DNA of 64,000 nucleotides from an uncultured Thermoleophilia bacterium (GCA_963838105.1 CAWIQC010000002.1:60069-124068), one strand, 5' to 3'; positions 24,448 through 45,816 are shown, counted from the stretch's first letter. Notes: generated by a model not told the origin, from the sequence alone. Numbers and translations: made by a program.

Positions 24448-24525
24448 TTTTCCTCCGTATCGGTCCGGGGGGTCAGCCCTCACGGTAGCGGCGAGGCTTT
24501 GGCGCTTTGTAAGGAACCGTCAGGG

Positions 24526-25944
24526 TTACCGGTCCAGCTGCCGCAGCGCCGCCTGCGCGGCCCAGTAGCCGCACATGCCGTGGACCCCTCCGCCCGGCGG
24601 CGTGGACGACGAGCACAGGAAGACGCCGGGCAGCGGTGTCTCGTACGGAACCAGCCTCGCCACCGGCCTGGTGACGAGCTGGCGCAGGTCCTGGAGGCCG
24701 CCGTTGATGTCACCGCCGACGTAGTTGGCGTTGTAGCGCTCGAGCTCCTGCGGCCCGAGCACGTGGCTTGCGATGACGCGATCGCGAAAGCCGGGTGCGA
24801 AGCGCTCGATCTGCGCCTCGATCTGCGCCCGGTCATGTCGACGGGGGACCCATTCGGCACGTGGCAGTAAGCCCAGACCGTGTGCTTGCCGGGCGGCGCC
24901 CGGCTCGGATCGAAGAGGCTCTGCTGCGCGAGCAGGACGTAGGGCCGCTCCGATGTCCGCCCGGCGGCCACCGCGGCCTCGGACGCGGCGATCTCCTCGA
25001 GCGTTCCGCCGAGGTGGACGGTGCCGGCGCGGGCGCACTCGGGAGCACGCCACGGGATCGGGCCGTCGAGGGCCAGGTCGAGCTTGAACGCGCCGGGCCC
25101 GTAGCGAAATCCTGCGAGGCGGCGCCGGTAGCCGGCGGGCAGGCGGCTGCCGCCGAGGCGGAGCAGCTGGCGCGGCGTGACGTCGAGGAGCACAGTGCGC
25201 GCGCGCGGCAGCTCGGCCAGGGATTCCACACGTCGGCCGAGCTCGATCTCGCCCCCGAGCGAGCGCAGGCAGGCGGCAAGGGCTTCGGCGAGCGACTGCG
25301 AGCCGCCCCGCGGCAAGGGCCAGCCCATGTGATGGCCGAGCAAGCCGAGCACGAGGCCGAAGCCCGCGCTCGGCGAGCTGGTGAGGGGAAGGAGCGAGTG
25401 CGCAGCCAGCCCCGCGAAGAGGGCGCGGGCCCGCTCGCCCTCGAAGCGACGGCGGGCCAGGCCGACGGCCGACTGGACGCCGAGCACGCCAAAGCGGGTG
25501 AGCGGCACAGGATGCCGCGGGACGCGGAGGGGGCCGAGGATGTCGGCAAGGAGATCGGCGGAGTCCTCGACGAGCGGCGCCATGAGCCGTCGGTAGGCGT
25601 CCGCGTCGGCCCCGAGCCCCTGCGCTGTCTCCTCCACGGAGCGCTCGAGGAGCACGGCCGTCCCGTCGTCGAAGGGGTGAGCGAGCGGCGCCGGCGGCTG
25701 GATCCACTCGAGGCCGTGCCGCTCGAGGCTCGAGCGTCTGGAGGAACGGCGAGCCGAGCCCGAGCGGATGGATGGCGGAGCAGACGTCGTGGCGGAAGCC
25801 GGGAAGCGTCAGCTCCGCCGTCCGCACGCCGCCGCCCACCGTTGCGGCCGCCTCGAGCACGAGCACGGAGCACCCGGCTCGTGCCAGCACGATCGCTGCG
25901 GCGAGGCCGTTCGGCCCGGAGCCGACGACGACCGCGTCGTGCAT
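24526..25944 (-). CDS. FAD-dependent oxidoreductase of the phytoene desaturase (CrtI-like) family, at least 3 frame breaks
   Basis: MHDAVVVGSGPNGLAAAIVLARAG..VLEAAATVGGG dinucleotide fold. C-terminal YNANYVGGDINGG...LCSSSTPPGGGVHGMCG. Confidence 0.8.
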   Translation of the reverse strand: MHDAVVVGSGPNGLAAAIVLARAGCSVLVLEAAATVGGGVRTAELTLPGFRHDVCSAIHPLGLGSPFLQTLEPRAARPRVDPAAGAARSPLRRRDGRAPRALRGGDSAGARGRRGRLPTAHGAARRGLRRSPCRHPRPPPRPAASCAAHPLWRARRPVGRRPGPPSLRGRAGPRPLRGAGCALAPSPHQLAERGLRPRARLARPSHGLALAAGRLAVARRSPCRLPALARGRDRARPTCGIPGRAAARAHCAPRRHAAPAAPPRRQPPARRLPAPPRRISLRARRVQARPGPRRPDPVACSRVRPRRHRPPRRNARGDRRVRGRGGRRADIGAALRPARAAEPLRSEPGAARQAHGLGLLPRAEWVPRRHDRAQIEAQIERFAPGFRDRVIASHVLGPQELERYNANYVGGDINGGLQDLRQLVTRPVARLVPYETPLPGVFLCSSSTPPGGGVHGMCGYWAAQAALRQLDR

Positions 25945-25948
25945 CTAG

Positions 25949-26166
25949 AGGTTGATTCCACGATCCACGCGCGGCCGGATGCGCCATCTGGCGCGTCTGG
26001 GCCGCTTCCGTTCCTTTCTGAGAGGCCGTGCGGCCTCTCAGACAGGCCCGTGCGCTTCGCGAGGTCGGGGCTTGCCGAGGCGTCCAGCCTCGCCTGCGCC
26101 CCGGCCTCGTGTCCCAGAGCGGCCAGCTGACGCCCCGGCGGAGGCGGATCTCGTGGAATCAACCAT
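25949..26166. mobile_element. MITE copy 1 (218 bp)
   Basis: Terminal inverted repeats (a)ggttgattccacga ... tcgtggaatcaaccat, flanked by CTAG at 25945..25948 and 26167..26170. Internal 11-bp-stem hairpin tctgagaggcc-gtgc-ggcctctcaga. Near-identical to 42656..42874. Confidence 0.85.
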
Positions 26167-26886
26167 CTAGCCGCGCGGCCCGACTCCTCCCGCGGCGCGG
26201 GCGCATTGCATGGAGGGTCGAGCGGATGGGCGCCGAGTGCCTGATGTTCCCGGCCTTCGACCACTGGCGCCGGCGGTCGACGCAGACGACCTGCGTCTCG
26301 ACGGCGGCCGAGACGCCGAGGTGGGCGGCCAGGTTCGCCAGCGTCTGCTCCCAGAAGCGGTCCTCCACCCGGTGCCCGCCGAGAGCGAGCCCGAGCTCTG
26401 TCAGGGGGTCCTGCGCCCGGACGAGCAGCTGCGCCTGAGCCACGGTCTCCCCATCCTCCTCGTGGGCGCTGAACGTGATCCAGCCGGCGAGCATGTGGCC
26501 CTGGGGCGTCATCTCCGTGAACGACACGTCGTCGGCGTGGAGTGTCATCACGCCGGTCGAGAGCTTGAGCCCGGCCGGCCCGGCCGCCTTGATCAGCGCG
26601 ACCTCGCCCGGCTCGATGCCGGTGAGCGGCGGGTAGAACGTGTTTCCTTCCGGCCAGAACTCGGCGAAGTGCTCCTTCCAGACGCGCGATCACCTCGGCC
26701 GGCGTGAGCTGCGAGCCCTCGAGCCGGACGCGGTACGTCTTCTGCCACATCTTCCCGAAGCCCTGGAGCGGGCCGAGCGAGGCGCTTGCCCTCGACGAGG
26801 TTGGCGGCTCCCTCCGGCACGGACTCGACGTGGAGCGTCGAGACCGGCTTCGCCCAGCGCCCCGCGTCGCGCGGTGTCTCGTTCAT
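26159..26886 (-). CDS. Conserved hypothetical protein, last gene of the sensor operon, at least 3 frame breaks
   Basis: RBS GGAGGA plus ATG 26886. MNETPRDAGRWAKPVSTLHVESVPEG.. / GFGKMWQKTYRVRLEGSQLTPAEVI / MTLHADDVSFTEMTPQGHMLAGWITFSAHEEDGETV. Present stop codon lies inside the MITE end. Confidence 0.55.
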
Positions 26887-26901
26887 CGTCTCCTCCTTCG
26901 G

Positions 26902-27252
26902 TCAGGCGACGGCTGCGAGCGCGTCGGCCTCCGAGTCGTAGATTCCGATCGCCTCGTCGAGGCGCGTGAGCTCGAAGATCTGGCGGTAGTGCTCGTTGAG
27001 GCCGAAGGCGAGCAGCTTCTGCTTCGCCCGGTTCGCTCGCACGAGCAGGGTGACCAGCAGTCCGATCCCGCTCGAGTTCATGTACTCGAGCTCGCTGAAG
27101 TTGAGCACGAGCGCGCGCACTTCCTCGCCGCCGGCGCGGGCGTAGGCGTCCATCAGCGCGTCCTCGCTCGCGGCCGTGATCTCGCCGCGCACGTCCACGA
27201 CGCAGGCGCCGTGGCCGGCGTCCCGCACCTCCAGGTTGAGCGTCGTCTGCAT
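26902..27252 (-). CDS. STAS-domain anti-sigma-factor antagonist (RsbV/SpoIIAA-like), copy 2
   Basis: RBS GGAGGA plus ATG 27252. MQTTLNLEVRDAG..VVDVRGEIT...LVLNFSELEYMNSSGIGLLVTLL...GLNEHYRQIFELTRL. Intact. Confidence 0.85.
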   Translation of the reverse strand: MQTTLNLEVRDAGHGACVVDVRGEITAASEDALMDAYARAGGEEVRALVLNFSELEYMNSSGIGLLVTLLVRANRAKQKLLAFGLNEHYRQIFELTRLDEAIGIYDSEADALAAVA

Positions 27253-27265
27253 GTGTCCTCCTTCC

Positions 27266-27600
27266 TCAGCTCGCGTCCTCGTCCGGAATGATCCGGACGA
27301 AGTCCGCGATGCGGGTGATCTCGAAGATCTCGCGGTAGTGGTCGGCGAGGCCTCGGGCCTCGAGCTCGACGCGGTCCCGGCGTCCCTTCGCAAGCAGCCC
27401 GACGAGGAGCGCGATGCCGGTCGAGTTGATGTACCCGACGCGGCTGAAGTCGAGCGTGACGACCCGCGCCCCGTGCCCGTCGCCTCCGCGTAGGCGGCTT
27501 CCAGCGCAGCTTCGGCGCCACCGTCGACGTCGCCCTCGAGCTCGACGACAGCCGCCTCGGCCGCCGGCTGCACGCGCGCCTCAAAGCGACTCGTCTGCAT
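27266..27600 (-). CDS. STAS-domain anti-sigma-factor antagonist, copy 1, one frame break near 27470
   Basis: RBS GAGAGGAGA plus ATG 27600. MQTSRFEARVQP..VVELEGDVD / ARVVTLDFSRVGYINSTGIALLVGLL...GLADHYREIFEITRI. Start overlaps the end of the upstream gene by 20 nt. Confidence 0.75.
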
Positions 27601-30477
27601 CCACGTCTCCTCTCAACCGGAACGCGAGCTCGAGCGTGTGGCTCTCGCCCTCCGTCCAGGTCTCGATGCCGTCAGCCATGTGCTCGATCAGGAACAGGCC
27701 CCAGCCGCGTGGCTTCTGCTCGGCCCTCGAGCTTCGCCTCGAGGTCGGGTCGTTCGGGCTCGACCATCGGGCGCGCTCCGCCGCCGTCCGTGATCCGCAC
27801 GCGGAGCCGCTCGCCGTCGGCGAGCACCTCGATGGCAACAGGCAGCTCGGGCCGTGAGTCGTTGCCGTGCTCGATCGCGTTCATGGCAGCCTCGGAGACG
27901 GCTGTCCGCAGCCGTTCGAGCGTCGTCGCGGGAACGGCGAGCCGCGCGACTGCCGTCGTGACACGCTTCCATGGCCTCCCGCTCGTTGCCGGGCACGCTC
28001 GCCAGCTCGAACGCGGCAAGCACCGTGCCGTTTCCGCCTCGCGGAGGTCGACCGGCTGCGGCGCCCGCTCGAGCGCCACGAGCGTGATGTCGTCCTCCTG
28101 CTCCCAGGCCGAGCCGGTGAAGCGGTCGAGCTCTGCGAGCAGGCCGTCGACCGGTGAGGTCGAGGCGGGCGAGAGCCCCATGAGCTCCCGCAGGCGCGGG
28201 AAGCCGAACATCTCGCCGCCCGGGTCGTGCGCCTCGACGAGGCCGTCCGAGTAGAGGAGCAGGCTCTCGCCGGGCTCGAGCACGGCCTCCTTCTCGTCGT
28301 ACGTCCATCTCCGGCATCAGGCCCAGCGGCATGCCGGTCGCGCGAAGCTCCACGGAGCCGCTCGCCGTGCGCACGCACGGCAGGTTGTGGCCGGCGTTCG
28401 CGTAGCGGAGCACGCCGGTCGACGGCTCGAGAACCGCGAAGAGGCAGGTCACGAACATCTTCGGCGGCATGTCGGGGCACAGCAGGTCGTTCGCTCGGCG
28501 CAAGCACCGCCGCGGGCGAGGCCTGCCGCTGCGACGTAGCCCGCAGGACGCTCCGCGTCGCCGCCATGACCATCGCGGCCGGGACACCCTTGTCGGTCAC
28601 GTCGCCCGACCACGAAGGCCGACCCGGCCGTCCGTCGAGCTCGATGACGTCGTAGAAGTCGCCGCCGACCTCTCGGGCCGGCCGGTAGTGGGCCGAGACC
28701 TGCCAGCCGGCGAGGTCGGGGAGCTCGCGCGGAAGGAAGTTCTGCTGGATGAGCCGGGCGACCTCGAGCTCCTGCTCGATCCGCTCGTGCTCACGCGCCT
28801 GGTATCTCCTGCTCGCGCACGAGCTGGCCGACCCGGAGCGCCGGCGCGGCCTGGGCGGCGAGGTTGTCGAGCAGCCGGCGATCGTCGGTCGAGTAGTCCT
28901 GATCGGAGAGCCGCGGCCCGAGGTTGAGCAGGCCGATCAGCTCGCCCTGGCTGACGAGCGGCACGACGAGCTTCACGCCCGTCGTCGTCAGCGCCGCGAG
29001 CGCAGGCGAGTCGAGCTCGAGGCTGTCGACGTCGATTGCGCCGGAGGCGCTCTCGAAGTACGCGACGAGCGGGTCGTTGGGAGCGATGTCGAGGTCGAGC
29101 GCTCCGGCGGGGCTCGCCGGTGTGTGCGCGGCGAGATCTCTCGCTTCGTCCGGCGGAGGCGCGGGATCCTGCGGCTGCGCTCGACGGAAGATGTGGGACA
29201 AACGCGTCATTGCTCTGCTCCTGTTGTACGGCCGACGCCGTCCGGCGGGCGTTACGGCATCCGTTACGGCGGGACGAAGCCAGAGCGACACCCGCTCGGG
29301 CTCCAGCGTTCGCCGCACGACGGCGGTGAGCTCGCCGTGGAGCGCGGCGATGTCGATCTCGTCGCGCAGCCGGGCGGAGAAGGCCTCGAGCGTGCGCTGG
29401 GCGTCGTAGCGGCGGCGGTAGAAGCGCCGGTCGACCGCTCGCTGAACTCGGGCCCGCACGGGACGGAAGAGCGCGGCGACGGCGAGCGTGGAGACGGCGA
29501 TGGCGAGGTCGGAGCCGCCGCCGAAGGAGGAGAAGACCTCCTGGAGGCCGAGCACGATCCCGAAGTAGGCGCCGACGAGCAGCGCCGAGACCGCGCCGTA
29601 GACGACTGCCCGGTTGACGATCCGGTCGATCTCGTAGAGGCGGTAGCGGAGGATGGCGATCCCGGCCGAGACCGGGATCGTGGCGATGGCCAGGAGCAGG
29701 AGCGGCTCCCAGACGGCGCCGTCGTCGATGTACCAGAAGAGGAGCGGGCCGCTCGCAAAGGCGGCGCCCACGAGGCCGGCGGCGCTCGCGACCCACTTGA
29801 GCTGCTGGCGCTCGAGCCCTGTCGCCCGGCGGAAGCGGAGGACGAGCGAGGTTGCCGAGACGAGAATGCCGACGAACATGAGGATGGAGGCGATGTTCGC
29901 GACGATCTCCAGCGCGTCCGCGAGCGCGCCTCCGGCTGCGTACGGGTTCTGTCAGAGGCTCGAAGTCCTCGAGCGTGTGGGGGCTGAACATCTCTCCGAG
30001 CAGAGCGAGCACGATGGCGCCGACGACGATCCAGACGACCGGCACCCAGCGCCGCGACAGCAGTCGACCCTCGGGGAAGAGGAGGAAGAGCAGCGTCGCG
30101 GCGAGGAACAGCGGTGGCAGAAGGAGCCACGACCCCAGCCAGGCCATCGTCTCGCCGGCCGGAAGGGAGCCGGGCTCGGTCAGCAGCGCGTAGAGGGCGT
30201 ACTGGTTGGCGAAAGCGGCGAGCGCGAACAGGCTTCCCAGGCCGACGAAGATCCAGCCGATCGGGTTCTCGGGGCGGCGAGAGGCGATGAGGGCGCCGAC
30301 GGTCGGAAAGCCAGGACGACGATCCCGAACAGGGCATCGCCGAGCGTGACGATCCGAAGTTGCTCGACGCCCGGCGTCGAGCGGTTGAGGATCAGGAATG
30401 CGAGCGCGGCGAACGTCAGCGCGATGGCGATCGCGCAAACCGCCCAGGCGAGACGGGTCGTGCCACTGCCGGCTCAT
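27581..30477 (-). CDS. Array paralog A: polytopic membrane module plus conserved juxtamembrane segment, fused to GAF-like, PP2C (SpoIIE/RsbU-type) phosphatase and RsbW-type HATPase kinase domains; many frame breaks
   Basis: - Membrane module: [85 protein letters not shown].
- GAF-like: VVPLVSQGELIGLLNLG.
- PP2C: GDFYDV..GDVTDKGVPAAMVMA..YANAGHN..LLLYSDGLVEA..DDITLVAL.
- Kinase: AAMNAIEHGN...GWGLFLI. Confidence 0.8.
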
Positions 30478-31705
30478 CGCTGCACCTTCGGTCCTCGGAG
30501 CCAGAGCGACACCTGAGCGGGCTCCAGCGTTCGCCCCACCACGGCGGTGAGCTCGCCCTGGAGCGCCGCGATGTCGACCTCGTCGCGGAGGCGGGCGGCA
30601 GAAGGCCTCGAGCGTGCGCTGCGCGTCGTAGCGGCGGCGGTAGAAGCGCCGGTCGACAGCTCGCTGGACTCGGGCCCGCACGGGACGGAAGAGCGCGGCG
30701 ACGGCGAGCGTGGAGACGGCGATGGCCAGGTCCGAGCCTCCGCCGAACGACGAGAACACCTCCTGGAGGCCGAGCACGATCCCGAAGTAGGCGCCGGCGA
30801 GGAGCGCAGAGACCGCGCCGTAGACGACCGCCCGGTTGACGATCCGGTCGAGCTCGTAGAGGCGGTAGCGGAGGATGGCGATCCCGGCCGCGATGGGGAT
30901 GGTGGCGACTGAGAGCAGCAGAACCGGCTCCCAGGGCCCGTCGTCGATCCACCAGAAGAGCGAGCGGGCCGCTGGCCCATGCCACGGCCACCAAGCCCGC
31001 GGCGCTCGCGACCCACTTGAGCTGCTGCCGCTCGAGGCCCGTCGAGCGGCGAAACCGCAGGATCAGCGAGATGGCCGACGCGATAAGGCTTGCGAGCATC
31101 AGCACGAACGCCACGTTCGCGACGATCTCGAGGGCGTCGGCAGCCGCACCTGCGACTGCGTACGGGTTCTCGATCGACTCGAAGCCCTCGAGCGGGCCGG
31201 GCAAGAACATCTCCGCGAGCAGGGCCAGCACGATCCCGCCCCCGGCGGCCCAGAGGACCGGCAGCCAGCGCCGCGAGAGAAGTGGCCGTTGGGGAAGAGG
31301 AGGAAGACCAGGGTTCCGCTCAGGATGAGCGGAGCCAGGAAGAGCCAGGACTGCAGCCAGGCCATCGCCATGCCCGCGGGCAGCGACCCCGGCTCGGTGA
31401 CGAGCGCGTAGGAGGCGTACTCGTTCGCGAAGGCCGAGATCGCGAACATCGCTCCGAGGCTGACGAAGATCCAGCCGATCGGGTTCCCCGGACGGCGGGA
31501 GGCGACGAGCGCCCCGACGGTCGAGAACGTGAGCAGAGCGACGACGAAGAAGACGGTCGCGACCTGCGATCCGATCGTGCTCATCCCCCTCTCATCGGGG
31601 CTCGAGCGGTTGAGAACGAGCGAACGCGAGAGCGGCTAACGTCAGGGCGAAGGACGAGCGCCGCAGACCCCCCAGGCAAGGCGTGTCGTCGGCGGGCCGG
31701 CTCAT
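30474..31705 (-). CDS. Array paralog B: membrane module plus juxtamembrane segment, no output domain; frame breaks
   Basis: MSRPADD.., [75 protein letters not shown]-stop. TGA overlaps the ATG of paralog A (ATGA at 30474..30477). Confidence 0.7.
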
Positions 31706-32947
31706 CGGCTCGCCTCCTGCGTCTCGGAGCCAGAGCGAGACCTGAGCGGGCTCCAGCGTTCGCCCCACGACGGCGGTGAGCTCGCCCTGGAGCGCGGCGA
31801 GGTCGATCTCGTCGCGGAGGCGGGCGGTGAAGGCCTCGAGCGTGCGCTGGGCGTCGTAGCGGCGGCGGTAGAAGCGCCGGTCGACCGCCCGCTGGACTCG
31901 GGACCGCACGGGCCGGAAGAGCGCCGCGACGGCGAGCGTGGAGACGGCGATGGCGAGGTCGGAGCCGCCGCCGAAGGACGAGAACACCTCCTGGAGGCCG
32001 AGCACGATTCCGAAGTAGGCGCCGGCGAGGAGCGCGGTCACCGCGCCGTAGACGAGGGCCCGGTTGACGATGCGATCGATGTCGTAGAGGCGGTAGCGGA
32101 GGATCGCGAGCCCGGTCGCCAGCCGGGATGGTGCCGAGCGCGACGAGGCCGAACCGGCATCGGGGGGCCCGTCGAAGCTCGTGCGAGAAGGCGAGCGGCC
32201 GATCGTTCAGCGGCACGATGACGAGCAAGCGCGCGGCGACCGAGGCGAGACCCACTTGATCTGCTGCCGCTGCTCGCGGTTCGCGAGGCGAAACCGCAGG
32301 AACGAGCGAGGTCACCGAGGCGATCAGGAGCACGACCAGGCGTGTCAGGCCGAAGCCACGTCGGCGACGAATCTCGAGGACGCCGGCACGCCGACCTGGG
32401 GTTCGTCGAGGTGCTCGAGCGGCTACCTCGAGCGGGCCCGCCCGGAACGTGAACGAGAGCGGGCGCCAGCACGATCAGCCACGGCGGCCGCGAAGTAGCG
32501 ACGGACGCCAGCGCGCCGACGAGAAGACGGCCGTCGGGAAACAGGAGGACGATCACCGCCATGACGCCCGAGGACGAGCGGATCCAGGTCCAGCCAGGAC
32601 GAGCCAGAGCGACGCCACGCGCCGCCGGCAGCGAGCCCGCGCTCGGTCGCGAGCTCGGCGTAGCCGCCGGACACGTTCGCGAAGCCCGAGATCGAGGACG
32701 CCGCGCCAGGCGAGAAGAACCAGCCGATCGGGTTCTCCGGGCGCCGGGAGGCGACGAGCGCGCCCACGGTCGCGAAAACGCTGAGGATAGCGACCCAGGA
32801 CGACGACAGCCCGACCTGCGATCCGAGTCGGCATCCGAGCCCGTTCCGGTGCTCGAGCCGTAGAACGACGAGACCAGGCCGGCTGAGATCAGCCGAGGAC
32901 GCCGACCCAGGCGCCCCAGGCGAGGCGGTGGCCGTGCGGCTGCTCAC
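31702..32947 (-). CDS. Array paralog C: same family, the most heavily frame-broken copy
   Basis: GTG 32947 overlaps the stop of the cyclase gene (GTGA). [45 protein letters not shown] (from DNA), [25 protein letters not shown]. Expected ATGA junction with B is out of frame here. Confidence 0.55.
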
Positions 32948-34285
32948 CGCTCCACCTCGGCGGCGAAGAGCTGACGCTCGCCCTGCACGCCCTTGAGCTC
33001 ACGGGTGCGAGGGTCTTCGAAGCGGACCCCGGAGCCGGCCACGAGCTCGCGGACGGTGCTCGAGACGAGGATCTCGCCGGCGCCGGCCATCTCGGCGACC
33101 CGCGCTCCGATGTGCACCGCGATGCCGCCCAGGTCGTCGCCGTGGAGCTCGCACTCACCTGCGTGGACACCCGCGCGGAGCTCGAGACCGAGCGGCCGGA
33201 CGCCGTCGCGAACGGCGGCGGCGCAGCGGATCGCCTGCGTCGGGCTGTCGAAGGCTGCGAAGAAGCCGTCGCCTGTCGTCCGGAGCTCGCGACCGCGGAA
33301 GCGATCGAGCTCCCTTCGCACCAGCTCGTTGTGGCGCTCGAGCAGCTCCTTCCAGCGACTGTCGCCGAGCCTCGTCACGTGCTCCGTCGAGCCGACGATG
33401 TCGGTGAAGAGCAGGGTCGTCAGCACCCGCTCGGGCTCGGGAGCGGTCCGGCGCGCACCGGTCACGAGCTCCTCGACCTCGCCGACGAGCGTCTCCGCGT
33501 CGCCGGCGAACGGCCAGTGGTCGTCGCCGGGAAGCTCGACGAGTCGCGCGCCGTGGATGTGATCGGCCAGATAGCGGGAGTGACCGACGTCGACGAACCG
33601 GTCGCCCCTCCGGTGGAGGACGAGCGTGGGCGCCCGGAGCCCGTCGAGCCGGTCGCGCACGTCGAGCTCGGTGTTCATCCGCATGAGCGAGACCGCGCGC
33701 CCGGGGCTCGCTCCGAGCCGCAGGAGCCGGGCGAACCAGCTCCGGTAGGCCTCGTCGTCTGCCAGGCTCGGCGCGAGAAGCGCGGCGCCGTCGCGCGGTG
33801 CCCCAGCCCTCCTCGGTCGCCGAAAGGTAGAGCTGGATCGCCGCCGGCGACCAGCCGAGGTCGTAGCCGTCGCCCTGGGTGAACTTCGCCAGGCCGGCGT
33901 AGAGGGCGAGCGCCGCGACGCGCTCGGGGTGCTCGGCGGCGAAGAGCGCGGCCAGCGCAGCGCCGTCGAACACGCCGAGGAGAGCGGCGCGCTCCGAGCC
34001 GGCGGCGTCGAGCACCGCGCCGATGTCGTCGATCCGCGCCTCCGGGGTCGGGAGGCCGTCCACGGGGTCGGACATGCCGGTGCCGCGCTTGTCGAACACG
34101 ATCAGGCGCGAGAAGGCCGCGAGCCGGCGCAGGAAGCGGGCGGACGCCGGCAGCTCCCAGCTCCATTCGGCGTGCGACAGGAAGCCCGGCACGAGCATCA
34201 GGTCGACCGGGCCCTCGCCCACGACCTGGTACGCGATCGTGACCTCGCCGCTGCGGGCGTAGCGCGTGTCGACCTGTGGCGTCAT
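32944..34285 (-). CDS. alpha/beta-hydrolase fused to a class III adenylate/guanylate cyclase domain, at least 1 frame break
   Basis: MTPQVDTRYARSGEVTIAYQVVGEGPVDLMLVPGF...FDKRGTGMSD...GVFDGAALA; then LLFTDIVGSTEH...RTTGDGFFAAF...RAGVHAGECE...GIAVHIGARV. ATGA overlap with upstream paralog E. Confidence 0.8.
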
Positions 34286-35484
34286 GTCGCACGCTCCCGG
34301 AGCCAGACCGATACGTGCGCCGGCCGCATCGTCTCGTCGACGGTGGCGGCGAGCTTCGTCTCGAGCGCGGCGAGCTCGACCTCCTCGCGCACGTGGCTCG
34401 CGAATGCCTCGAGGGTGCGCTGGGCGTCGTACTTGCGCCGGTAGAAGCGGCGATCGACGAGGGCCTGGATGCGGCCCCGGACCGGACGGAAGAGCGCGAA
34501 CGCGATGAGCGTCGACGCCGCGATCGCGAGATCGCCGCCTCCGGCGAACGACGAGAACACCTGCTGGAAGAGTAGGACGATCGCGAGGTAGAGGCCGGCG
34601 AGGGCCACGGTCGCCGTGCCGTAGACGAGCGTGCGGCGGATGATCAGGTCGATGTCGTAGAGGCGGTACCGCAGGATCGCGAGGGCGGTCGCGATGGGGA
34701 TGCCCACGAGCAGGGCGAACAGCGTGGCGGCCCAGAGGACGTCCCCGGCCAGCTCCCAGTCCACTGCCGCGAACGGGAGGACCAGGGCGATCGGGGTCGG
34801 CAACGACAAGGGCGAGCCACTTGAGCTGTTGGCGCTCGACTCCTCTGGCGCGCCGGAAGCGAAGCGCGAGCGAGAGAACTGCCGCCGCGAGGCTCGCGAC
34901 GAGCAAGCGCTGCGCCGGCCAGCCGCAGTCGCTTCCAGCAGGCCGGCCGCGTCGACGCCGAGCGGGTTTGGCGAACCCCCCGTAGAGAGGGTCGGGGTGC
35001 AGGCCTTCACCCAGGATCGAGAGCACGATCGCGCCCGCAGCCAGCCAGATGGCGAGGCGCCAGCGAGGCGTGAGCGGCCGGCCGTCAGGGAAGAGGAGCG
35101 AGGAAGATCGCGCTGAGCGCGAACGCGGGCCAGGTGCTCCACTCGTAGAACCACGCGAGCCACTGCGGCGCGGGCACCGCGTCGGGCCGCACGGCGGCGA
35201 TCTCGCCGCCGATCTCGACGATGCCGTTCGAAGGCCCAGACGAGCGACGTGCAGCACATGACCCAGCCGACGGCGTTCTCGGGCCGGCGAGCGGCGACGA
35301 GCGCGCCGGTCGTCGCGAACACGGCGAGCCCGAGGTCACCGAGAATCGTGAGCCAGAGCGGCTCGATGTCAGCCTCCTCCGCCGCAGACGCGCCGTAGAC
35401 GGCGAGAGCGATCCCGAGCCCGGTGAGGGCGAGGTACAGGGCCCAGAGGGACCAGGCGAGGCGGGTTGTTGTGCGCGTGCTCAC
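34282..35484 (-). CDS. Array paralog E: membrane module plus juxtamembrane segment, no output domain; frame breaks
   Basis: GTG 35484 (GTGA overlap with F). [93 protein letters not shown]-stop. Confidence 0.7.
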   Translation of the reverse strand: MSTRTTTRLAWSLWALYLALTGLGIALAVYGASAAEEADIEPLWLTILGDLGLAVFATTGALVAARRPENAVGWVMCCTSLVWAFERHRRDRRRDRRRAARRGARAAVARVVLRVEHLARVRAQRDLPRSSSLTAGRSRLAGASPSGWLRARSCSRSWVKACTPTLSTGGSPNPLGVDAAGLLEATAAGRRSACSSRASRRQFSRSRFASGAPEESSANSSSGSPLSLPTPIALVLPFAAVDWELAGDVLWAATLFALLVGIPIATALAILRYRLYDIDLIIRRTLVYGTATVALAGLYLAIVLLFQQVFSSFAGGGDLAIAASTLIAFALFRPVRGRIQALVDRRFYRRKYDAQRTLEAFASHVREEVELAALETKLAATVDETMRPAHVSVWLRERAT

Positions 35485-36651
35485 GTTCGTATGTCGGGCG
35501 ACCGTAACCAGAGCGAGACCTGTGCGGGCTGCAACGTCTCCTGCACGACGCCGCGGAGCTCCTCGCCGAGCGCGTCGAGGTCGATCTCGTCGCGCAGGCT
35601 GGCGGAGAAGCTCTCGAGGGTTCGCTGAGCATCGTAGCGACGGCGATAGAACCGCCGGTCCACCAACTGCTGGATGCGTCGTCGGGCCGGGCCGAACAGC
35701 GCGGCGACCGCGAGCGTCGAGACGGCGACGGCGAGGTCGGAGCCGCCCGCGAACGACGAGAACACCTTCTGCAGGGCGAGCACGATCCCGAAGTAGAGGC
35801 CGGCCAGAGCTACCGTGGCGACGCCGTAGACGAGGGTTCGCTTGAGGACGAGATCGAGGTCGTACAGCCGGTAGCGGAAGATCGCGATGCCTGCCGCGAT
35901 CGGCAGACTCGAGAGTCCCAGAGCTCCGAGCACGGACAGCACCTCGCCCGAGTCGATGAGGAAGAACGAGGCGATGAAGATCGGTGCCGCCGCGAGGAAC
36001 CAGCGGAGCTGCTGCCGCTCGTCCGCCCCTGCAGAGCGATATCGGACGAACACGGACACTACTGCGAGCAACAGCGCGAGCATTGTCCCGAGCCACGCCC
36101 AGTCGCCGCCGGAAAACAACGGGAACTCGATCTCGATGGGCTTGTCTGCCCCGGTAACGCTCGAGAGCGTGCCCGGCCCGAGGGCGGTTCCCAGCCCCAT
36201 CACGAACAGCGAGGCAGCGGCGAGCCAGGCGACGGGACGGAATCGTGGGGAGGTCAATTCCCCGGTCGGAAACAGCAGGAGGAGAAACGTTCCGAGCGCG
36301 AGCGCGGCGACAGGAGCCAGATCTGCCGCCAACCCTGCCCAGGAGCCGCCCGGCAGCGAGCCCGGCGACTCTCGAAGTGCGTAGATCGCGTATTCCTGGC
36401 AGAACAGCGCGATCTGAATTCCGAGTCCCAGCCGCGAGGAAGATCCAGCCGACCCGGTTCCCGAACCGGCGTGACACGATCAAGGCGCCGACGGCCGAGT
36501 AGGCGAGGATCGAGACGATGAGGGCCGGGTCGGTCGCCCGCGGGAGGTCGGAGACCTCGAGTGAGCGCGTGGGCACCCACAGCGCGAGCCCCGCGGCGGC
36601 GAACGCGACGGAGAGCCCGAAGAGCGACCAGGCTACGCGGCCGCTCGTCAC
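35481..36651 (-). CDS. Array paralog F: membrane module plus juxtamembrane segment, no output domain; one or two frame breaks
   Basis: GTG 36651 (GTGA overlap with G). [97 protein letters not shown]-stop. Confidence 0.75.
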
Positions 36652-37902
36652 CGCTTCTCCTGAGCAGGACGAAGCCAGAGCGAGACGTCGGAGGGTTGCA
36701 TGGTGTCGCGAACGACGGTACGTAGCTCGGTGCCGAGCGCGTCGAGGTCGACCTCGTCGCGGAGGCGGGCGGAGAAGGTCTCGAGCGTGCGCTGGGCGTC
36801 GTAGCGGCGGCGGTAGAAGCGCCGGTCGACGGCGTGCTGGACGCGCCGGCGCGCGGGCCCGAACAGCGCCGCGACGGCGAGCGTCGAGACGGCGACGGCG
36901 AGGTCGGAGCCGCCGGCGAACGACGAGAAGACCTGCTGCAGGGCGAGCACGATCCCGAAGTAGAGGCCGGCCAGGCCGGCGGTCGAGGACGCCGTAGACG
37001 AGCGTCCGGCGGATGATCACGTCGATGTCGTAGAGGCGATACCTGAAGATCGCGATGCCGATGGCGAGCGGGAGAGCCACGAGGCCGGCGACCAACGGCG
37101 CCGCGCCGATCCAAGACTCCCCGTTCGTGGCCGAGAGCGTGATGAATCCAGCTGCGAGGAGGGTGGCCGCGTAGGCGAACCACTTGAGCTGCTGGCGCTC
37201 GTCTCCCCTGGCACGGTGAAGGCGAAGCACGAACGAGCTCGCCGAGGCGAGGATGCTGACGACGAGCAGCGTCCAGCCGGTGGAGCCCTTCGAGCGACGT
37301 CGAAGAACCGTCCGGCGCGGTCGATCCCGAACGGATTCTCGATCGAGGTGATGTCATCGAAGCCGCCCAGCGGGCCCGGGCGAGAACGAGCCCAGGAAGA
37401 GGGCGACGAGGGAGCCCGCTGCGAGCCACGCGACGGGTCGCCAGCGCCGCGAGGGCAACCGACCGTCCGGGAAGAGGAGGAGGAGGAACGCTGCGGTGAT
37501 ACCCAGTCCGACGTAAGGCGTCCACGACCAGAGCCAACCCAACGCCTGACCTGCTGGCAGCGAGCCGGGGTTTGTGAAGATGGCGTAGATCGCGTAGCCC
37601 TGGGCGAAGCCGGAGATGGCAAAAGCACCCCCGGCGGCAATGAGGATCCAGCCGATCGCATTGCCGGTCTGGCGCGTGGCGATGAGGGCTCCGACGGCCG
37701 AGAAAGGAAGGAAGACGAGTGCGAAGAGCGCCTCGTCGTGCGCCTCCTCGCCGTCCGGGAGCGGCGTCGAGAGGTTGAGGGCCAGAAACGCGAGGCTGAG
37801 CGCGGTGAGCACGAGCGAGAGCCCGGCGAGCCCGAGGGCCACCCGGACCCAGATCGTGGTAGCCCCCGGTCTTCCCATGCGAATCGGCCGGCTCCTAGCC
37901 AC
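36648..37902 (-). CDS. Array paralog G: membrane module plus juxtamembrane segment, no output domain; frame breaks
   Basis: [113 protein letters not shown]-stop. Start is GTG 37902 or ATG 37878. Confidence 0.75.
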
Positions 37903-38358
37903 AGCTACGGCTCAGTCTGTCGAACCGCCAAGCTCGGACGGCCACGAGCTGAGCGATCAGGACGATGGCCAGCGCATTGACGACGTGCAGGGCAGACAAC
38001 GTCGGCACGTTGTCCTGCGCGAGGACGAGCAGGCCCTGGACGATCGTCAGGCCCGTGAGCAGCGCAGATGGCCAGAGGATCCCGCGACCCATTCGCCAGC
38101 GAGCGCCGTGAGCAGGATGAGCGCGGCGATGAACGTGAGCACGCTGCCGAGAATCCGGTGGGCGCCGAAGCTCTGCCCATCGAAGACGGCTAGGCCTGCG
38201 AGCAAGAACTGGGTGACCAGCCCCGCGAGGAACGCGACGACGAAGATCCAATGAAGGGTCCGGGCTGCGCGTCGCTGGGGCCTCCAGTGGAATCGTCGCC
38301 TCGTTGTTCGCGGCGACGAACCGAGCTTTGCCACGGGGCTGGTGCGAAGATCGCTCAC
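37895..38358 (-). CDS. Small polytopic membrane protein (possibly DUF6220-like), one frame break near 38060
   Basis: GTG 38358 overlaps the stop of paralog H (GTGA). [35 protein letters not shown]... / ...[24 protein letters not shown]. Family assignment is from memory only. Confidence 0.5.
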
Positions 38359-39590
38359 CGACCGCTCCTGAGCCAGAGCGAGACGTGTGCCGGCTGCATC
38401 GTCTCCTCGACGACGCCGGTCGAGCTCATCTCGCAGCGCGTGCAGGTCGATCTCGTTGCGCAGGCTGGCGGAGAAGCTCTCGAGCGTGCGCTGGGCGTCG
38501 TAGCGGCGCCGGTAGAAGCGGCGGTCCACCGCGGTTTGAATTCGTCGCCGCGCCGGCCCGAACAGTGCGGCGACGGCGAGGGTCGAGACGGCGACGGCGA
38601 GGTCGGAGCCGCCGGCGAACGACGAGAACACCTGCTGCAGGGCGAGCACGATGCCGAAGTAGAGGCCCGCCAGCGCGGCGGTCGCGACGCCGTAGACGAG
38701 CGTCCGGCGGATGATCACGTCGATCTCGTAGAGGCGGTACCTGAGGATCGCGAAGCTGGCGGCGATCGGGATCGCGGTGAGCGCAGCGACCGCCAGCGCG
38801 CCAGGACCAGCTCCTCGAAAACGGCCGACCCCGTGTCCTCGGACGAAGCCCTCCTACCAAGAAGACGACGGCGAAGAACACGCCGTGCTCGCCACCCACT
38901 TGAGCTGCTGACGCTCGACGGCTCCCGAGCGCCGGAAGCGCACGACGAGCGCCGCCGCGGCGATCGCGAGGCTCGGGAGAAGAATGAACCAGCCGGCCAC
39001 TGCGGCGTTCCCGAGCACCTCGGGCGCTCCCTCGATGCGGAGCGGGTTCTCGACGTGCTCGAACGGCTCCGTGAGCGTCTCCGGCGCGAGAACGCCGACG
39101 CAGAAGCGCGAGGAGACCGACGGCCTGGAGCCACACGAGAGGCCGCCAGCGGCGCGAGGGAGGCCTTCCCGTCGGGAACAGCAGCAGGATCAGCACCCCC
39201 GCGAAGAAGGCCACGGCCCAGATGTTGGCGCCGACGAATGCCGCGTACGCGCCTCCGGGAAGGGAGCCGCGGTTCCGCGACGAGCGCGTGGTGGCCGTAC
39301 GCCGTGGCGAACACCGCGACGGCGAGGACGACGCCGACGACGCAGAAGAGCCAGCCGATGGGGTTTCCGGGTCGTCGCCTCGCGATCGATCGATGCCGAC
39401 GGCCGGCGAACGCGACTGGCCGGGATGAGGACGACGGCGTCGTCCCAGCGATCGTCGATATGCGCCGAGCGGCGAGCGTGCCCGCCGAGCCAAGGCGAGC
39501 GAGAGCCGCAGAGGGCACCCAGGCGAACGGCGCGCTCAGGTGGGCAAGAGCCGCGTCGCGGCGATCAACGGATTCTCCGCCAACGCGCAC
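38355..39590 (-). CDS. Array paralog H (first gene of the operon): membrane module plus juxtamembrane segment, no output domain; frame breaks
   Basis: [94 protein letters not shown]-stop. Start GTG 39590 is approximate. Confidence 0.7.
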
Positions 39591-39657
39591 GCGTCGCGCC
39601 AGTCCAAGGCTCGACGACGTCCCATGGTCGGAGCGTGCAGCGGCGCCGTTCCGGGTC

Positions 39658-39676
39658 CGTTACGGCGACCGTAACG
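39658..39676. promoter_or_regulatory. Palindrome CGTTACGG-CGA-CCGTAACG in the 107-bp divergent control region
   Basis: 8-bp perfect arms between the operon start (39590, minus) and the SARP gene start (39698, plus). Confidence 0.4.
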
Positions 39677-39697
39677 CGGTCGAGGTACGTTGCGCTC

Positions 39698-42481
39698 GTG
39701 AGCAGCTTGACGATCTCGCTCCTCGGGCCGCCGCGGATCGAGGTGGACGGCCTGCCGTTACGCGTCGACACGCGCAAGGCGGTGGCGCTGCTGGCCTACC
39801 TGGCGGTCACCGGCCGGCCGGCTCGGCGCGAGCTGCTCGCCGATCTGCTCTGGCCCGAGTACGAGCCGGCCAACGGGCGTGCGGCGTTACGCCGCACCTT
39901 GTCGGTGCTTCGCGCCGCCCTGGGCGCCCGCTGGCTCTCGGCATCCCGCGACATCGTGAGCCTCGATGAGCACGGCGTCGACCTGGATGTCGATCGCTTC
40001 CGCCGGTTGCTCGTCGAGGGCCGGGCGCACGAGGCGGTCGTGCTCTACCGCGGCGACTTCCTCGAGGGGTTCGACCTACGCGACAGCGCGGAGTTCGATC
40101 ACTGGCAGATCGCCGAGGCTCAGGCGCTGCGCCGCGAGCTCGGCGCCGGCCTCGAACAGGTGGCGCTCGAGCGGGCCGAGGCCGGAGATCTCGAGGCGGC
40201 GATCGTGCACGCGCGCCGGCGCCTCGAGCTCGATCCGCTCGCCGAGTCGGGCCATCGCCTGCTGATGCAGCTGTATGCGTGGGCAGGCGATCGTGCCGCC
40301 GCGATCGAGCAGTACCGGGCCTGCGTCCGCGCGCTGCATCGCGAGCTCGGCGTCGCCCCGCTCGCCGAGACGACCGAGCTCTACGAGCAGGTCAGCGCCG
40401 GCAAGATCGTCCAGCCGGCCCCGCGGCCGCCGGCAGCGGCGACGCCTGTGCACGCTCCGGTCGCGCTCCCGCTCGTCGACCGCGACGCCGAGCTCGCGAG
40501 CCTGATCTCGGCCTGGCAGGGCGCCGCGCCCGACGGCCGCCTCATCGTGATCGAGGGCGAGGCCGGCATCGGCAAGACGCGGCTCGCCGACGAGCTCGCG
40601 GCTCGGGCCGGCGCCGCTGGAGCGGTGACTGTCGTCGTGCGCGCGGCCGAAGCGGAGGCGGAGCTTCCGTACGCCGCCGTGCTCGACGCGATGCGACAGC
40701 TCAGCGATCGGCCGGACGCTGCGCAGCGAATTGCGACGGTCCCAGCCCTGATCGCAGCGGAGGCCGCACGCCTCGCGCCGGAGGTGGCAGACCTGCGCCC
40801 GGGCCTGCCACCGGCGCCGCCGACGGACAGCCCCGGAGCGGGCAGCCGCTTCCTGGGCGCGCTCGCGGACGTCCTCACGGCCTGCAGCGCCGGCAGCGCG
40901 CCCGGGCTTCTCGTCGTGGACGACGCTCAGTGGGTCGATGCCGCGTCGCTCGAGGTGCTGAGCTTCCTGGTCCGCCGCCTCGAGGGCCGCGCGCTCTGCA
41001 TCCTGCTGTCGTGGCGAGCCGAGGAGCTGCCGCCGGGCCACGCACTCCGCGAGCTGCTGGCAGACGCGCGGCGCTCGAGACGCGGGCTCCTCGTGGCTCC
41101 GAGACGCCTCGGTCGCGCGGCCGTAACGGAGCTGGCACGGGCAGCGGGCGCCGTATCGGAGATCGATCGGCTCTACGCCCAGACCGCCGGCCTGCCCCTC
41201 TTCGTCGTCGAGTACCTCGCGGCTCTCGGCGAGACGGCAGGTGGCGACGTGCCGGAGGGCGTGGCCGAGCTCCTGCGTCACCGTGCGGCGGCGGCGAGCG
41301 AGGGCGCTCGCCAGGTGCTCGCGGCAGCCGCGGCGCTCGGGACCTCCTTCGACCTGGAGGCGATCCGCGAGACGAGCGGGCGCAGCGACGAGGAGACCGT
41401 GGCCGCCCTCGAGGAGCTCGAAGCGCGAGGGCTGCTCAGCGAGGACGGCGAGAGCTACGCGTTCGCGCACGACTCGATGCGGTCCGTGATCTACGCCGAC
41501 ACGAGCCTCGCTCGGAGGCGCTTGCTCCACCGGCGTGCCGCTGAGGCGCTCGCCGCGAGGCCGCCGCGCGACCGCGTCGAGCGTGCGGCGGTCATCGCCG
41601 AGCAGTACCGGCTGGCAGGACGAGATGCCGACGCGGCCGAGTATCACCGCCTGGCAGGTGAGCGGGCCCGAGAGCTGCTGGCGCCCTCGGAGGCGCTCGC
41701 CCACTTCCGGGCTGCGCTCGCGCTCGGCCACGCGGACGAGGCCATCCTGCACGAGGCAGTCGGCGAGCTGCTCATGCTCATGGGCGAGTACGGGCCGGCG
41801 CTCACGAGCCTCGAAGCGGCCGCCGCTCTGGCGACCGATCGAGCACAGCTCGGCCGGATCGAGCACGAGCTCGGCGCCGTTCGTCATCGGCAGGGTGAGT
41901 GGGAGCTCGCCGCAGCACGCTACGAGGCCGCCGCGGCCGCGCTCGAAGGCAACGAGGGGCAGCTCGCGCGCATAGAGGCCGACCGCAGCCTCAACGAGCA
42001 CCGGAGGGGTCGTGGCGAGGCCGCCGCTGCACTGGCGCACAGGGCGCTCGAGCTCGCGGAGCGGGCCGGGGACACCGCAGCGCTCGCGCAGGCGCACAAC
42101 ATCCTCGGCATCCTGGCCTCGAGCGGCGGCGCGCTCGACGAGGCCCGCACGGAGCTCCGCCAGAGCCTGGAGCTCGCCGGCGCGCTCGGCGACCCCGGTG
42201 CGCGCGTGGCGGCGCTGAACAACCTCGCGCTCCTCGAGCGAACGGAGGGGGATCTCGCCGAGGCGCTGCGGCTCACGCGGGAGGCCCTTGCGTTGTGCGT
42301 GGCCCAGGGCGATCGTCATCGCGAGGCGGCGCTGCACAACAACCTCGCGGATCTCCTGCACGCAGCCGGCGACCCTGACGCTGCGATGGCGGAGCTCAAG
42401 CAGGCCGTGGCGATCTTCGCAGAGATCGGCGGCGACGCCGGCGAGGCTCAGGTCGAGATCTGGAAGCTCGTCGAATGGTGA
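39698..42481 (+). CDS. AfsR/SARP-family regulator: OmpR-type winged helix plus BTAD, P-loop NTPase, C-terminal TPR repeats
   Basis: SLLGPPRIEVDGLPL...RKAVALLAYLA...LYRGDFLEGF...HRLLMQLYAWAGDRAAAIEQY...GEAGIGKTRL...LLVVDDAQWVD, then many TPR-like repeats. Uninterrupted over 2.8 kb. The supplied ORF start at 38984 is an upstream artefact. Confidence 0.9.
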   Translation: MSSLTISLLGPPRIEVDGLPLRVDTRKAVALLAYLAVTGRPARRELLADLLWPEYEPANGRAALRRTLSVLRAALGARWLSASRDIVSLDEHGVDLDVDRFRRLLVEGRAHEAVVLYRGDFLEGFDLRDSAEFDHWQIAEAQALRRELGAGLEQVALERAEAGDLEAAIVHARRRLELDPLAESGHRLLMQLYAWAGDRAAAIEQYRACVRALHRELGVAPLAETTELYEQVSAGKIVQPAPRPPAAATPVHAPVALPLVDRDAELASLISAWQGAAPDGRLIVIEGEAGIGKTRLADELAARAGAAGAVTVVVRAAEAEAELPYAAVLDAMRQLSDRPDAAQRIATVPALIAAEAARLAPEVADLRPGLPPAPPTDSPGAGSRFLGALADVLTACSAGSAPGLLVVDDAQWVDAASLEVLSFLVRRLEGRALCILLSWRAEELPPGHALRELLADARRSRRGLLVAPRRLGRAAVTELARAAGAVSEIDRLYAQTAGLPLFVVEYLAALGETAGGDVPEGVAELLRHRAAAASEGARQVLAAAAALGTSFDLEAIRETSGRSDEETVAALEELEARGLLSEDGESYAFAHDSMRSVIYADTSLARRRLLHRRAAEALAARPPRDRVERAAVIAEQYRLAGRDADAAEYHRLAGERARELLAPSEALAHFRAALALGHADEAILHEAVGELLMLMGEYGPALTSLEAAAALATDRAQLGRIEHELGAVRHRQGEWELAAARYEAAAAALEGNEGQLARIEADRSLNEHRRGRGEAAAALAHRALELAERAGDTAALAQAHNILGILASSGGALDEARTELRQSLELAGALGDPGARVAALNNLALLERTEGDLAEALRLTREALALCVAQGDRHREAALHNNLADLLHAAGDPDAAMAELKQAVAIFAEIGGDAGEAQVEIWKLVEW

Positions 42482-42532: not shown

Positions 42533-42540
42533 GTCCAAAG

Positions 42541-42624
<84 letters not shown>

Positions 42625-45373: not shown

Positions 45374-45435
45374 CGTCCCATCTTGGACCATGGCGCCGCC
45401 CCGATGGTTCCGCCTGCCGCGGGCTACACTGTCTC

Positions 45436-45789
<354 letters not shown>

Positions 45790-45790
45790 G

Positions 45791-45816
45791 AAAAAGCCCT
45801 GGTAACGGGGCTTTTT
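45791..45816 (+). terminator. Rho-independent terminator after rnpB
   Basis: aaaaagccc-tggtaacg-gggcttttt (9-bp stem flanked by A and T runs, potentially bidirectional). Confidence 0.6.

Follow-up and report, generated by a model that had tools for sequence, protein, structure and literature searches.

Partner switching of the RsbU/RsbW/RsbV type combines a PPM/SpoIIE phosphatase, an RsbW-like kinase of the HATPase_c_2 type and STAS antagonists with a serine motif. The PP2C phosphatase and the RsbW-like kinase act antagonistically on the STAS proteins. In M. tuberculosis Rv1364c, S. coelicolor OsaC and V. fischeri SypE, phosphatase and kinase are found in one chain, and sensor proteins are normally single chains or have dedicated adaptor domains. 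Here we analyse a 64,000-nucleotide stretch of DNA from an uncultured Thermoleophilia bacterium (CAWIQC010000002.1:60069-124068, hereafter the window), whose minus strand encodes, between 26159 and 39590, a series of paralogous membrane proteins (modules) followed by a single-chain phosphatase/kinase and two STAS proteins. The system lies within known PP2C/RsbW/STAS partner switching, and its input architecture is unusual. In contrast to RsbU/RsbW/RsbV and to Rv1364c, OsaC and SypE, the predicted sensor is a separate, multi-copy membrane protein, a GAF domain appears to be divided over two polypeptides, and the locus encodes two STAS proteins and no sigma factor.

Paralogous sensors with a variable input and a conserved docking part, feeding one PP2C-based switch, are also a feature of the Bacillus subtilis stressosome (RsbRA-RD plus RsbS, with RsbT/RsbU). 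The RsbR paralogues are, however, soluble and dock via STAS into a large kinase-sequestering complex, whereas the modules described here are predicted 10-transmembrane (10-TM) proteins; they contain neither STAS nor any Pfam domain, and the cluster has no RsbS- or RsbT-like gene. SiaABCD of Pseudomonas aeruginosa resembles the locus in that a PP2C phosphatase, a kinase and a STAS-like protein are encoded with a nucleotide cyclase. SiaD is a diguanylate cyclase under SiaC control, whereas here a LipJ-like class III cyclase gene lies amid the modules and is absent from several related loci. For PPM phosphatases, N-terminal sensor domains, GAF included, have been proposed to exert control via dimeric coiled-coil linkers (PMC12143880), and the GAF-type N-terminal regulator and helical linker predicted in the window are consistent with this scheme. 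An earlier note on this DNA knew of no comparable system; likewise, our full-text literature search returned no paper describing such an arrangement.

That note had read the cluster as twelve genes: modules H, G, F, E, C, B and A, a small membrane protein, a cyclase, two STAS genes and a gene of no assigned function, with module A fused to the GAF, PP2C and kinase domains. A profile hidden Markov model (HMM), built from 103 intact homologues, detects seven copies of a module of about 400 residues in the window and no more; all are on the minus strand, from 29268 to 39386, and each is pieced together from 2-5 frame segments. Pfam, run on stop-free translation pieces, bears out the domain content: GAF, SpoIIE (PP2C), HATPase_c_2, two STAS, Guanylate_cyc with Abhydrolase_1, and DUF6220. 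The genes are listed below with the evidence for each; L and P numbers denote related loci and homologous proteins, and modules without an attached output are called orphans.

38355-39590, minus: membrane module H, orphan, at least three frame breaks, start uncertain (HMM segments; comparison with L003; stop TGA at 38355-7)
37895-38358, minus: small DUF6220 membrane protein (Pfam DUF6220; GTG start overlaps the H stop as GTGA)
36648-37905, minus: membrane module G, orphan, start GTG at about 37905 or ATG at about 37878 (translation; HMM; overlap)
35481-36651, minus: membrane module F, orphan, one frame break, main part intact as given (HMM; overlap; match to P0001)
34282-35484, minus: membrane module E, orphan, about five frame breaks (translation; HMM; overlap)
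32944-34285, minus: LipJ-like alpha/beta-hydrolase plus class III cyclase, one frame break, 4-nucleotide overlaps at both ends (Pfam; NCBIfam NF058673)
31702-32947, minus: membrane module C, orphan, no stop at the ATGA of 31702-5 in the sequence as given (translation; HMM; one indel correction restores the stop)
30474-31705, minus: membrane module B, orphan, three frame breaks (HMM; overlap)
29207-30477, minus: membrane module A, orphan once the extra base 29234 is removed (HMM; comparison with L003; base deletion)
27584-29210, minus: predicted soluble output protein with GAF second half, coiled-coil linker, SpoIIE-type PP2C and RsbW-like HATPase_c_2, at least four frame breaks (Pfam; L005 orthologue)
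27266-27600, minus: STAS protein 1, RsbV-like, motif INSTG, one frame break (Pfam; translation)
26902-27255, minus: STAS protein 2, RsbV-like, motif MNSSG, intact (Pfam STAS, E 6.5e-16)
26159-26886, minus: conserved protein of about 240 residues, function unassigned, sub-threshold DUF1990 (translation; synteny)

The genes are tightly packed. The six 4-nucleotide start/stop overlaps reported before were all recovered (GTGA at 38355-8, 36648-51, 35481-4 and 32944-7; ATGA at 34282-5 and 30474-7), and a seventh, ATGA at 31702-5, supplies an in-frame stop after one indel correction. The ATG of STAS protein 1 lies 14 nucleotides before the stop of the kinase gene. For module H, the window has CTG where L003 has its ATG, and indels scramble roughly the first 60 codons. 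The earlier picture of tandem output-less membrane paralogues packed beside a PP2C/RsbW-like kinase, two RsbV-like STAS genes and a cyclase is thereby upheld.

The same cannot be said of the fusion, which rests on one base. In the sequence as given, one frame (29951-28794) continues from module A into the PP2C gene. Alignment with L003 at this junction reveals one extra base in the window; deleting 29234 changes '...PAGRRRPYNRSRAMTRL' to '...PAGRRGRTTGAEQ' followed by a stop, and creates an ATGA overlap at 29207-29210. The tail of module A then reads '...WLRPAVTDAVTPAGRRGRTTGAEQ' before a TGA that overlaps the ATG, at 29210, of a separate 540-residue phosphatase/kinase gene. A last module whose TGA shares bases with the ATG of a distinct gene (MTRL... 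or MTTI...) is also found in L001, L003, L006, L007, L008, L013 and L015, and in all seven of these loci with a module beside the PP2C gene the overlapping ATG is preceded by a Shine-Dalgarno sequence; among the seven, L015 has clean reading frames. L005 has the PP2C/kinase gene by itself behind the cyclase, in one open reading frame (ORF) of 542 residues that comprises half GAF, SpoIIE and HATPase_c_2, and about 50 stand-alone PP2C/kinase proteins of 530-545 residues are present in the database. Because the deletion of 29234 restores a split that matches L003 and six other loci, we count 13 genes and no output-bearing paralogue. The fused paralog A is most likely the artefact of a 1-nucleotide insertion; all seven modules are read as orphans, and the output as a separate protein, predicted to be soluble, that contains only half of a GAF domain. 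The Pfam GAF match on window 'A' was rejected as proof of fusion: it spans the artificial junction.

Could module A nonetheless be truly fused to GAF, PP2C and kinase, with the six orphans hetero-oligomerising or competing with it? Beside the one-frame read-through, fused proteins of like architecture exist in other organisms (P0122), and the C-terminal helices of the modules are 70-87% identical, making mixed dimers conceivable. This explanation, however, hinges on a single extra base amid 5-13 non-triplet indels per kb relative to L003, and all seven junctions between a module and a PP2C gene show the stop/start overlap with its Shine-Dalgarno sequence; we consider it very unlikely. The proposal that the orphans hetero-oligomerise or compete with paralog A loses its anchor, since there is no output-bearing paralogue. 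Its companion, that several inputs converge on one switch, has gained strength from module fusions to GAF-PP2C(-kinase) or GAF-HisKA_3 kinases and from the orphans beside every split PP2C gene (10/10 loci).

Proteins of about 780-810 residues with two modules also occur in the database (P0172, P0173, P0177, P0180, P0183, P0184, P0190 and P0191) and at 14876-17326 of L001, mostly from long-read metagenome assemblies. Because a single indel at a 4-nucleotide overlap fuses adjacent genes, these double-module proteins may be read-through artefacts like window 'paralog A', and we excluded them as evidence.

The break between module and output falls inside the GAF domain. The split PP2C proteins lack a complete GAF, matching positions of about 70-132 of the Pfam model only, and the fused homologues P0122, P0126, P0138 and P0155 match positions 1-133 (P0126: 7-132). 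Across the split point P0122 reads '...VSVWLR-DQTKVGAEALA-DIAPNDPVVAYF...', with 11 residues between VSVWLR and DIAPNDP; in split loci the module stops shortly past WLR and the next protein begins about 40 residues before DIAPNDP. On the strength of the Pfam GAF coverage and the P0122 alignment, the orphans are predicted to carry alpha1-beta1 of the GAF domain and the output protein the remainder.

We modelled the joined reading of the window (28794-29951, minus strand) with AlphaFold2, from an alignment of fused, orphan and PP2C sequences. In the model alpha1 (201-216) and beta1 (221-225) have a predicted local distance difference test (pLDDT) score of about 88-92, with beta1 assigned as a strand by DSSP; the linker is disordered, and the half-GAF scores above 95. 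The Foldseek matches of this model are GAF domains. Modelled in this covalent reading, the joined pieces can form one GAF-like fold; for an orphan modelled alone, the stub is disordered (pLDDT below 50).

The remainder of the output protein is that of a partner-switching regulator. The phosphatase domain matches PF07228 over its full length in the L005 orthologue (183 bits) and in fragments in the window, where the PP2C motifs GDVTDKG, SDGL and DDIT are readable. The kinase domain matches PF13581 (77 bits), contains the N-box NAIEHGN, and is recognised by the NCBIfam SpoIIAB/RsbW models at E 2.5e-13 to 1.4e-8, below their equivalog cut-offs. Both STAS genes match PF01740 and contain a predicted phosphorylatable serine in N-S-[ST]-G (INSTG and MNSSG); TIGR00377 is just missed, at 52.3 bits against a cut-off of 53.45.

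The modules themselves match no Pfam or NCBIfam family. Their HMM retrieves 41,476 clusters (50% identity) at E <= 1e-3 and 11,882 at E <= 1e-30; almost all of the best 150 matches are 385-440 residues long and cover the whole profile. A WLR-type motif was seen in 166 sampled members; 153 of them terminate at a median distance of 6 residues behind it. The modules of the arrays likewise stop 3-8 residues past VSLWLR, except the last one before the PP2C gene, which has a tail of about 22 residues overlapping the start of that gene. Identity among the paralogues of one locus is 27-34% over residues 1-250 and about 70% over the last 150, with a peak of 86-87% at profile positions 321-360, a predicted cytoplasmic helix.

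An AlphaFold2 model of the module (pLDDT 84.5) contains a confident helical membrane bundle over residues 1-260, then a pair of long helices, and ends in a tail that is disordered at VSLWLR. From this model and the positive-inside rule we infer about ten TM helices with both termini cytoplasmic; the conserved motifs, among them SRRPxNPIGW, FPDGRLxSRRW and RFRRxxxERQQLKW, would lie on the cytoplasmic face. Against the PDB, Foldseek returned nothing significant for the model, with generic 7-TM look-alikes at E >= 0.02 and TM-scores of at most 0.38. PrsK (TIGR02916; 20.8 bits against 300) and HisKA_7TM (PF16927; 19.5 bits against 28.6, reached only by the distant member P0229) are more distant relatives, far under the family cut-offs.

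A role for the module is suggested by its fusions. Homologues are joined to GAF-SpoIIE (P0126, P0138, P0155), GAF-SpoIIE-HATPase_c_2 (P0122), PAS-GAF-SpoIIE (P0124) and GAF-HisKA_3-HATPase_c (P0181, P0185). Because these homologues are fused to GAF-PP2C(-kinase) or GAF-HisKA_3 kinase outputs, we take the module to be a predicted signalling input domain. These single-chain relatives share with the locus the homologous module followed by GAF and output, and P0122 even its gene context (regulator, two STAS genes, DUF1990-like gene). They differ in being one polypeptide present in one copy, whereas the window modules are detached and amplified. Some family members, the distant orphans P0218 and P0199 of loci L010 and L012, adjoin phage-type integrases and have no signalling genes nearby; L010 also holds short module fragments.

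The frame breaks raise the question of how far the window itself can be trusted. It is an indel-rich assembly rather than merely a damaged operon, because the flanking FAD-oxidoreductase and methyltransferase genes are frameshift-split in the same way (24480-25944, the FAD-oxidoreductase gene, and 43788-44586 are examples). Guanine plus cytosine (GC) content is about 71%; on the minus strand from 26159 to 39590 the frame with high third-position GC switches every few hundred nucleotides, and in stop-to-stop translations recognisable protein segments hop between frames. The regulator gene at 39698-42478 (2.8 kb) is unbroken despite its frameshifted surroundings.

At the DNA level, L003 is the locus nearest to the window, with 92-94% identity and 86 non-triplet indels, mostly single extra bases on the window side. 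Their distribution is very uneven: the array and the PP2C region show 5-13 per kb, the array reaching 17 per kb in places, and the regulator gene has 2 in about 3 kb, the lowest density being 0.6 per kb. Inadequate polishing of paralogous DNA could plausibly account for this. Between 55% and 90% of the substitutions relative to L003 fall at codon position 3 in the modules, PP2C, STAS and unassigned genes, as do 61% in the intact regulator gene, and because of this concentration the genes are taken to be under purifying selection. Orthologues with clean ORFs are found in L004 (a short-read MEGAHIT contig), L005 and L015 (a Joint Genome Institute, JGI, contig), and module F is 93% identical to the intact 389-residue JGI protein P0001. 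The codon-position bias, the clean orthologues and the intact P0001 all favour reading the frameshifts as errors, or else as changes of very recent date.

Two alternatives turn on these data. In one, the reading frames are truly broken and the majority of the modules are duplicated copies decaying as pseudogenes, as the many breaks per gene and the higher indel density of the array relative to the regulator gene might suggest. Against this, the homologous segments contain no in-frame stops and have high third-position GC in the correct frames, the codon-position bias resembles that of the intact regulator gene and speaks against pseudogenisation, flanking genes outside the array are broken too, and the orthologues are intact; decay is thus highly improbable. 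In the other, the copy number is a repeat expanded by the long-read assembler, for which the error-prone assembly and the module 3' ends, about 80% identical in DNA, could be held responsible. The N-terminal two-thirds of the copies are, however, just about 30% identical in protein, the copies have positional orthologues of their own in other metagenome-assembled genomes (MAGs), and arrays of 3-10 modules occur in independent assemblies, including L004 (MEGAHIT, short reads) and L015 (JGI). The array is genuine in our view, and assembler expansion is extremely improbable.

Homologues and syntenic loci come from MAGs of uncultured Thermoleophilia/Gaiellales, many of them out of one long-read project. 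The survey of related genomes proposed in the earlier note turned up arrays beside PP2C/STAS genes repeatedly. The 13 compared loci, the window included, are listed below with module counts given as those before plus those after the cyclase.

Window: modules 4+3; PP2C/STAS yes
L001: modules 6+2; PP2C/STAS yes
L002: modules about 6+4 (9-10); PP2C/STAS none within the fetched stretch
L003: modules 5+2; PP2C/STAS yes
L004: modules 4 + at least 2; contig ends before the PP2C/STAS position
L005: modules 3+0; PP2C/STAS yes
L006: modules 3+3; PP2C/STAS yes
L007: modules 3+3; PP2C/STAS yes
L008: modules 5+3; PP2C/STAS yes
L015: modules 1+2; PP2C/STAS yes
L013: two modules, without cyclase; PP2C/STAS yes
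L014: three stretches with module-family sequence, lying downstream of the switch genes, without cyclase; PP2C/STAS yes
L009: one fused gene, without orphan, without cyclase; PP2C/STAS yes (fused)

The number of modules ranges from 1 to 10 and their arrangement changes (one stretch of L014 is called as an 807-residue double-module protein). Constant are the divergent AfsR-like regulator and the gene order STAS, STAS, DUF1990-like; the DUF1990-like gene always follows the two STAS genes, L009, L013 and L014 included. A split PP2C gene is accompanied by an adjacent orphan module in 10/10 fetched loci, in three different gene orders. L009, from an Actinomycetota MAG, encodes a single 919-residue protein with 10-TM module, complete GAF, PP2C and RsbW-like kinase, set between a divergent AfsR-like regulator and two STAS genes with a DUF1990-like gene. 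We describe the cluster as a predicted signalling locus conserved in uncultured Thermoleophilia/Gaiellales.

Orthologues of H, F and A are found in at least three loci, and those of G and B in L003. Module C has no orthologue in L003, which in turn contains an additional copy between G and F; judged by this turnover, the modules appear to undergo birth-and-death evolution even at 93% genome identity. L005 contains a non-coding remnant of a module tail ('VTISGRSGSRKDPR' followed by a stop in one frame) at 11329-11392, between the cyclase stop and the PP2C start. Because this remnant has been kept, deletion of the downstream modules by recombination is suggested for L005.

How might such a locus work? 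In its simple form, seen in L009, the system has one module-GAF-PP2C-kinase protein. In the lineage of the window a gene of this type would have been broken within the GAF domain right past alpha1 and beta1, the membrane part multiplied to 3-10 tandem paralogues (seven in the window), and a LipJ-like pseudo-hydrolase/cyclase inserted into the array. Each orphan consists of a fast-diverging transmembrane and outer part and a strongly conserved, predicted cytoplasmic end, made up of a signalling helix and the alpha1-beta1 stub. The stub of a module in its signalling state may complete the half-GAF of the phosphatase/kinase, recruiting and dimerising it at the membrane, and the coiled-coil linker would shift the balance of PP2C and kinase activity toward the two STAS proteins. 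Different modules, presumably responding to different membrane or external cues, would use one output jointly or in competition. Candidates for the downstream target are the DUF1990-like protein, the AfsR-like regulator and the cyclase.

Our confidence differs between the parts of this scheme. We hold with high confidence that all modules are orphans, that the split lies inside the GAF domain and that the array is conserved with variable copy number. Docking of the stub on the half-GAF is a serious but tentative proposal. Anatomy and docking taken together as one reading seem to us, on balance, somewhat probable. That the split GAF acts as plug and socket, with detachable sensor modules multiplexing 3-10 membrane inputs onto one phosphatase/kinase switch, is possible but rather doubtful.

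Several observations weigh against docking. Solitary orphans without signalling neighbours exist (L010) in what is a huge family, and L002 combines 9-10 modules and a cyclase with no PP2C/STAS gene within the fetched stretch; because of both, the stub may have another role, such as self-association. The AlphaFold2 model consists of covalently joined pieces with natural fusions in the alignment, and does not represent docking in trans. The cluster contains no sigma factor or other target gene, and the fetched flanks of related loci contain no sigma factor gene.

These points lead to a further alternative, in which the orphans are independent membrane proteins without part in PP2C/kinase signalling, they adjoin the switch genes through shared ancestry, and the stub is used for self-assembly or for some other partner, perhaps the cyclase. 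It would account for the L010 orphans and the L002 array, for the translational coupling of the cyclase to modules on both sides, and for a family that far outnumbers the half-GAF phosphatases seen. It sits poorly with orphans beside the split PP2C gene in every one of the ten loci and in three gene orders, with a fused form that lacks orphans, with a break point that is exactly complementary inside one domain, and with a cyclase that is absent from L009, L013 and L014. We judge it unlikely and prefer the reading in which orphan modules address the half-GAF of the output protein.

The cyclase is not a constant partner of the switch: it is missing from those three loci, and in L002 it accompanies an array without PP2C/STAS in the fetched stretch. 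With mycobacterial LipJ (Rv1900c) it shares the combination of alpha/beta-hydrolase and class III cyclase. Its match to NF058673 (LipJ) is full-length and scores 441 bits against an equivalog cut-off of 800, its gene lies within the module array, and the nucleophile serine is replaced. The nucleophile elbow reads G-[VI]-F-[DE]-G-A in the window (G-V-F-D-G-A) and in 4/5 other loci checked, and A-V-F-E-G-G in L015; the serine is thus absent from the elbow in the window and in 5/5 loci. A second LipJ-like hydrolase-cyclase gene, outside the array at 56370-57663 (plus strand), keeps the nucleophile motif G-I-S-E-G-G. The small membrane gene between H and G matches DUF6220 at 32.4 bits (gathering score 29.8) and was detected, among the fetched loci, only in the window and in L003 (4729 to about 5200). 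The DUF1990-like protein stays below the gathering score of that family (16 bits against 23 in two members) and has no sequence relative in the PDB.

Upstream of the cluster, and again within it, lie features that bear on its regulation.

39698-42478, plus: AfsR/SARP-like regulator (BTAD, AAA_16 and TPR), divergent (intact ORF; single tblastn high-scoring pair over 1-927; Pfam of the L005 orthologue; synteny)
39591-39697, no strand: divergent intergenic region with an inverted CCGTAACG pair at 39658-39676, probable operator/promoter (repeat scan)
29250-29269, minus: two CCGTAACG copies, 12 nucleotides apart, about 45 nucleotides upstream of the PP2C start (repeat scan; conserved in related loci)

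The regulator adjoins the cluster in every related locus that reaches that far. Its assignment to the large AfsR/SARP regulators (BTAD, NTPase AAA_16 and TPR) rests on Pfam matches of the L005 orthologue, to which the window gene aligns over residues 1-927.

A CCGTAACG-N6-CGGRACG element is found at two sites, one within the divergent promoter region and one ahead of the PP2C gene. It forms an inverted pair at the first site and a direct pair at the second, and the window has five exact hits against 0.98 expected. CCGTAACG is present at both sites in L001, L003, L006-L008, L013 and L015, at the promoter only in L002, L004 and L009 (the fused locus), and in the non-coding DNA before the PP2C gene in L005 (11349). 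The long tail of the last module is simply translation through this element, which is probably an operator or internal promoter and may be bound by the AfsR-like regulator. That it recurs a short way upstream of the PP2C gene points to a second promoter, under similar control, from which the output genes would be transcribed, and a single 13.4-kb transcript, as assumed in the earlier note, is therefore doubtful.

Among other features of the window, a LexA-like gene (42950-43573, plus) lies beside the AfsR-like regulator in conserved synteny. Rfam scanning detected no RNA family within the cluster; the window has RNase P RNA class A at 45435-45792 (plus, 256 bits). A tRNA-Leu(GAG) gene lies at 42540-42624 (minus) and a tRNA-Thr(TGT) gene at 14580-14652 (plus).

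The locus also carries a methodological lesson: a single 1-nucleotide error in a noisy long-read assembly produced the one 'output-bearing' paralogue that underpinned the earlier reading. If the favoured reading is true, a cut internal to a domain, combined with amplification of the input half, would be a new wiring of many inputs to one output and a natural case of protein-fragment complementation in signalling, in which new inputs could evolve through simple tandem duplication. The analysis offers a testable function for a very large membrane-protein family without a Pfam model, and points to a regulatory hub in the Gaiellales, an abundant uncultured order of soil actinobacteria.

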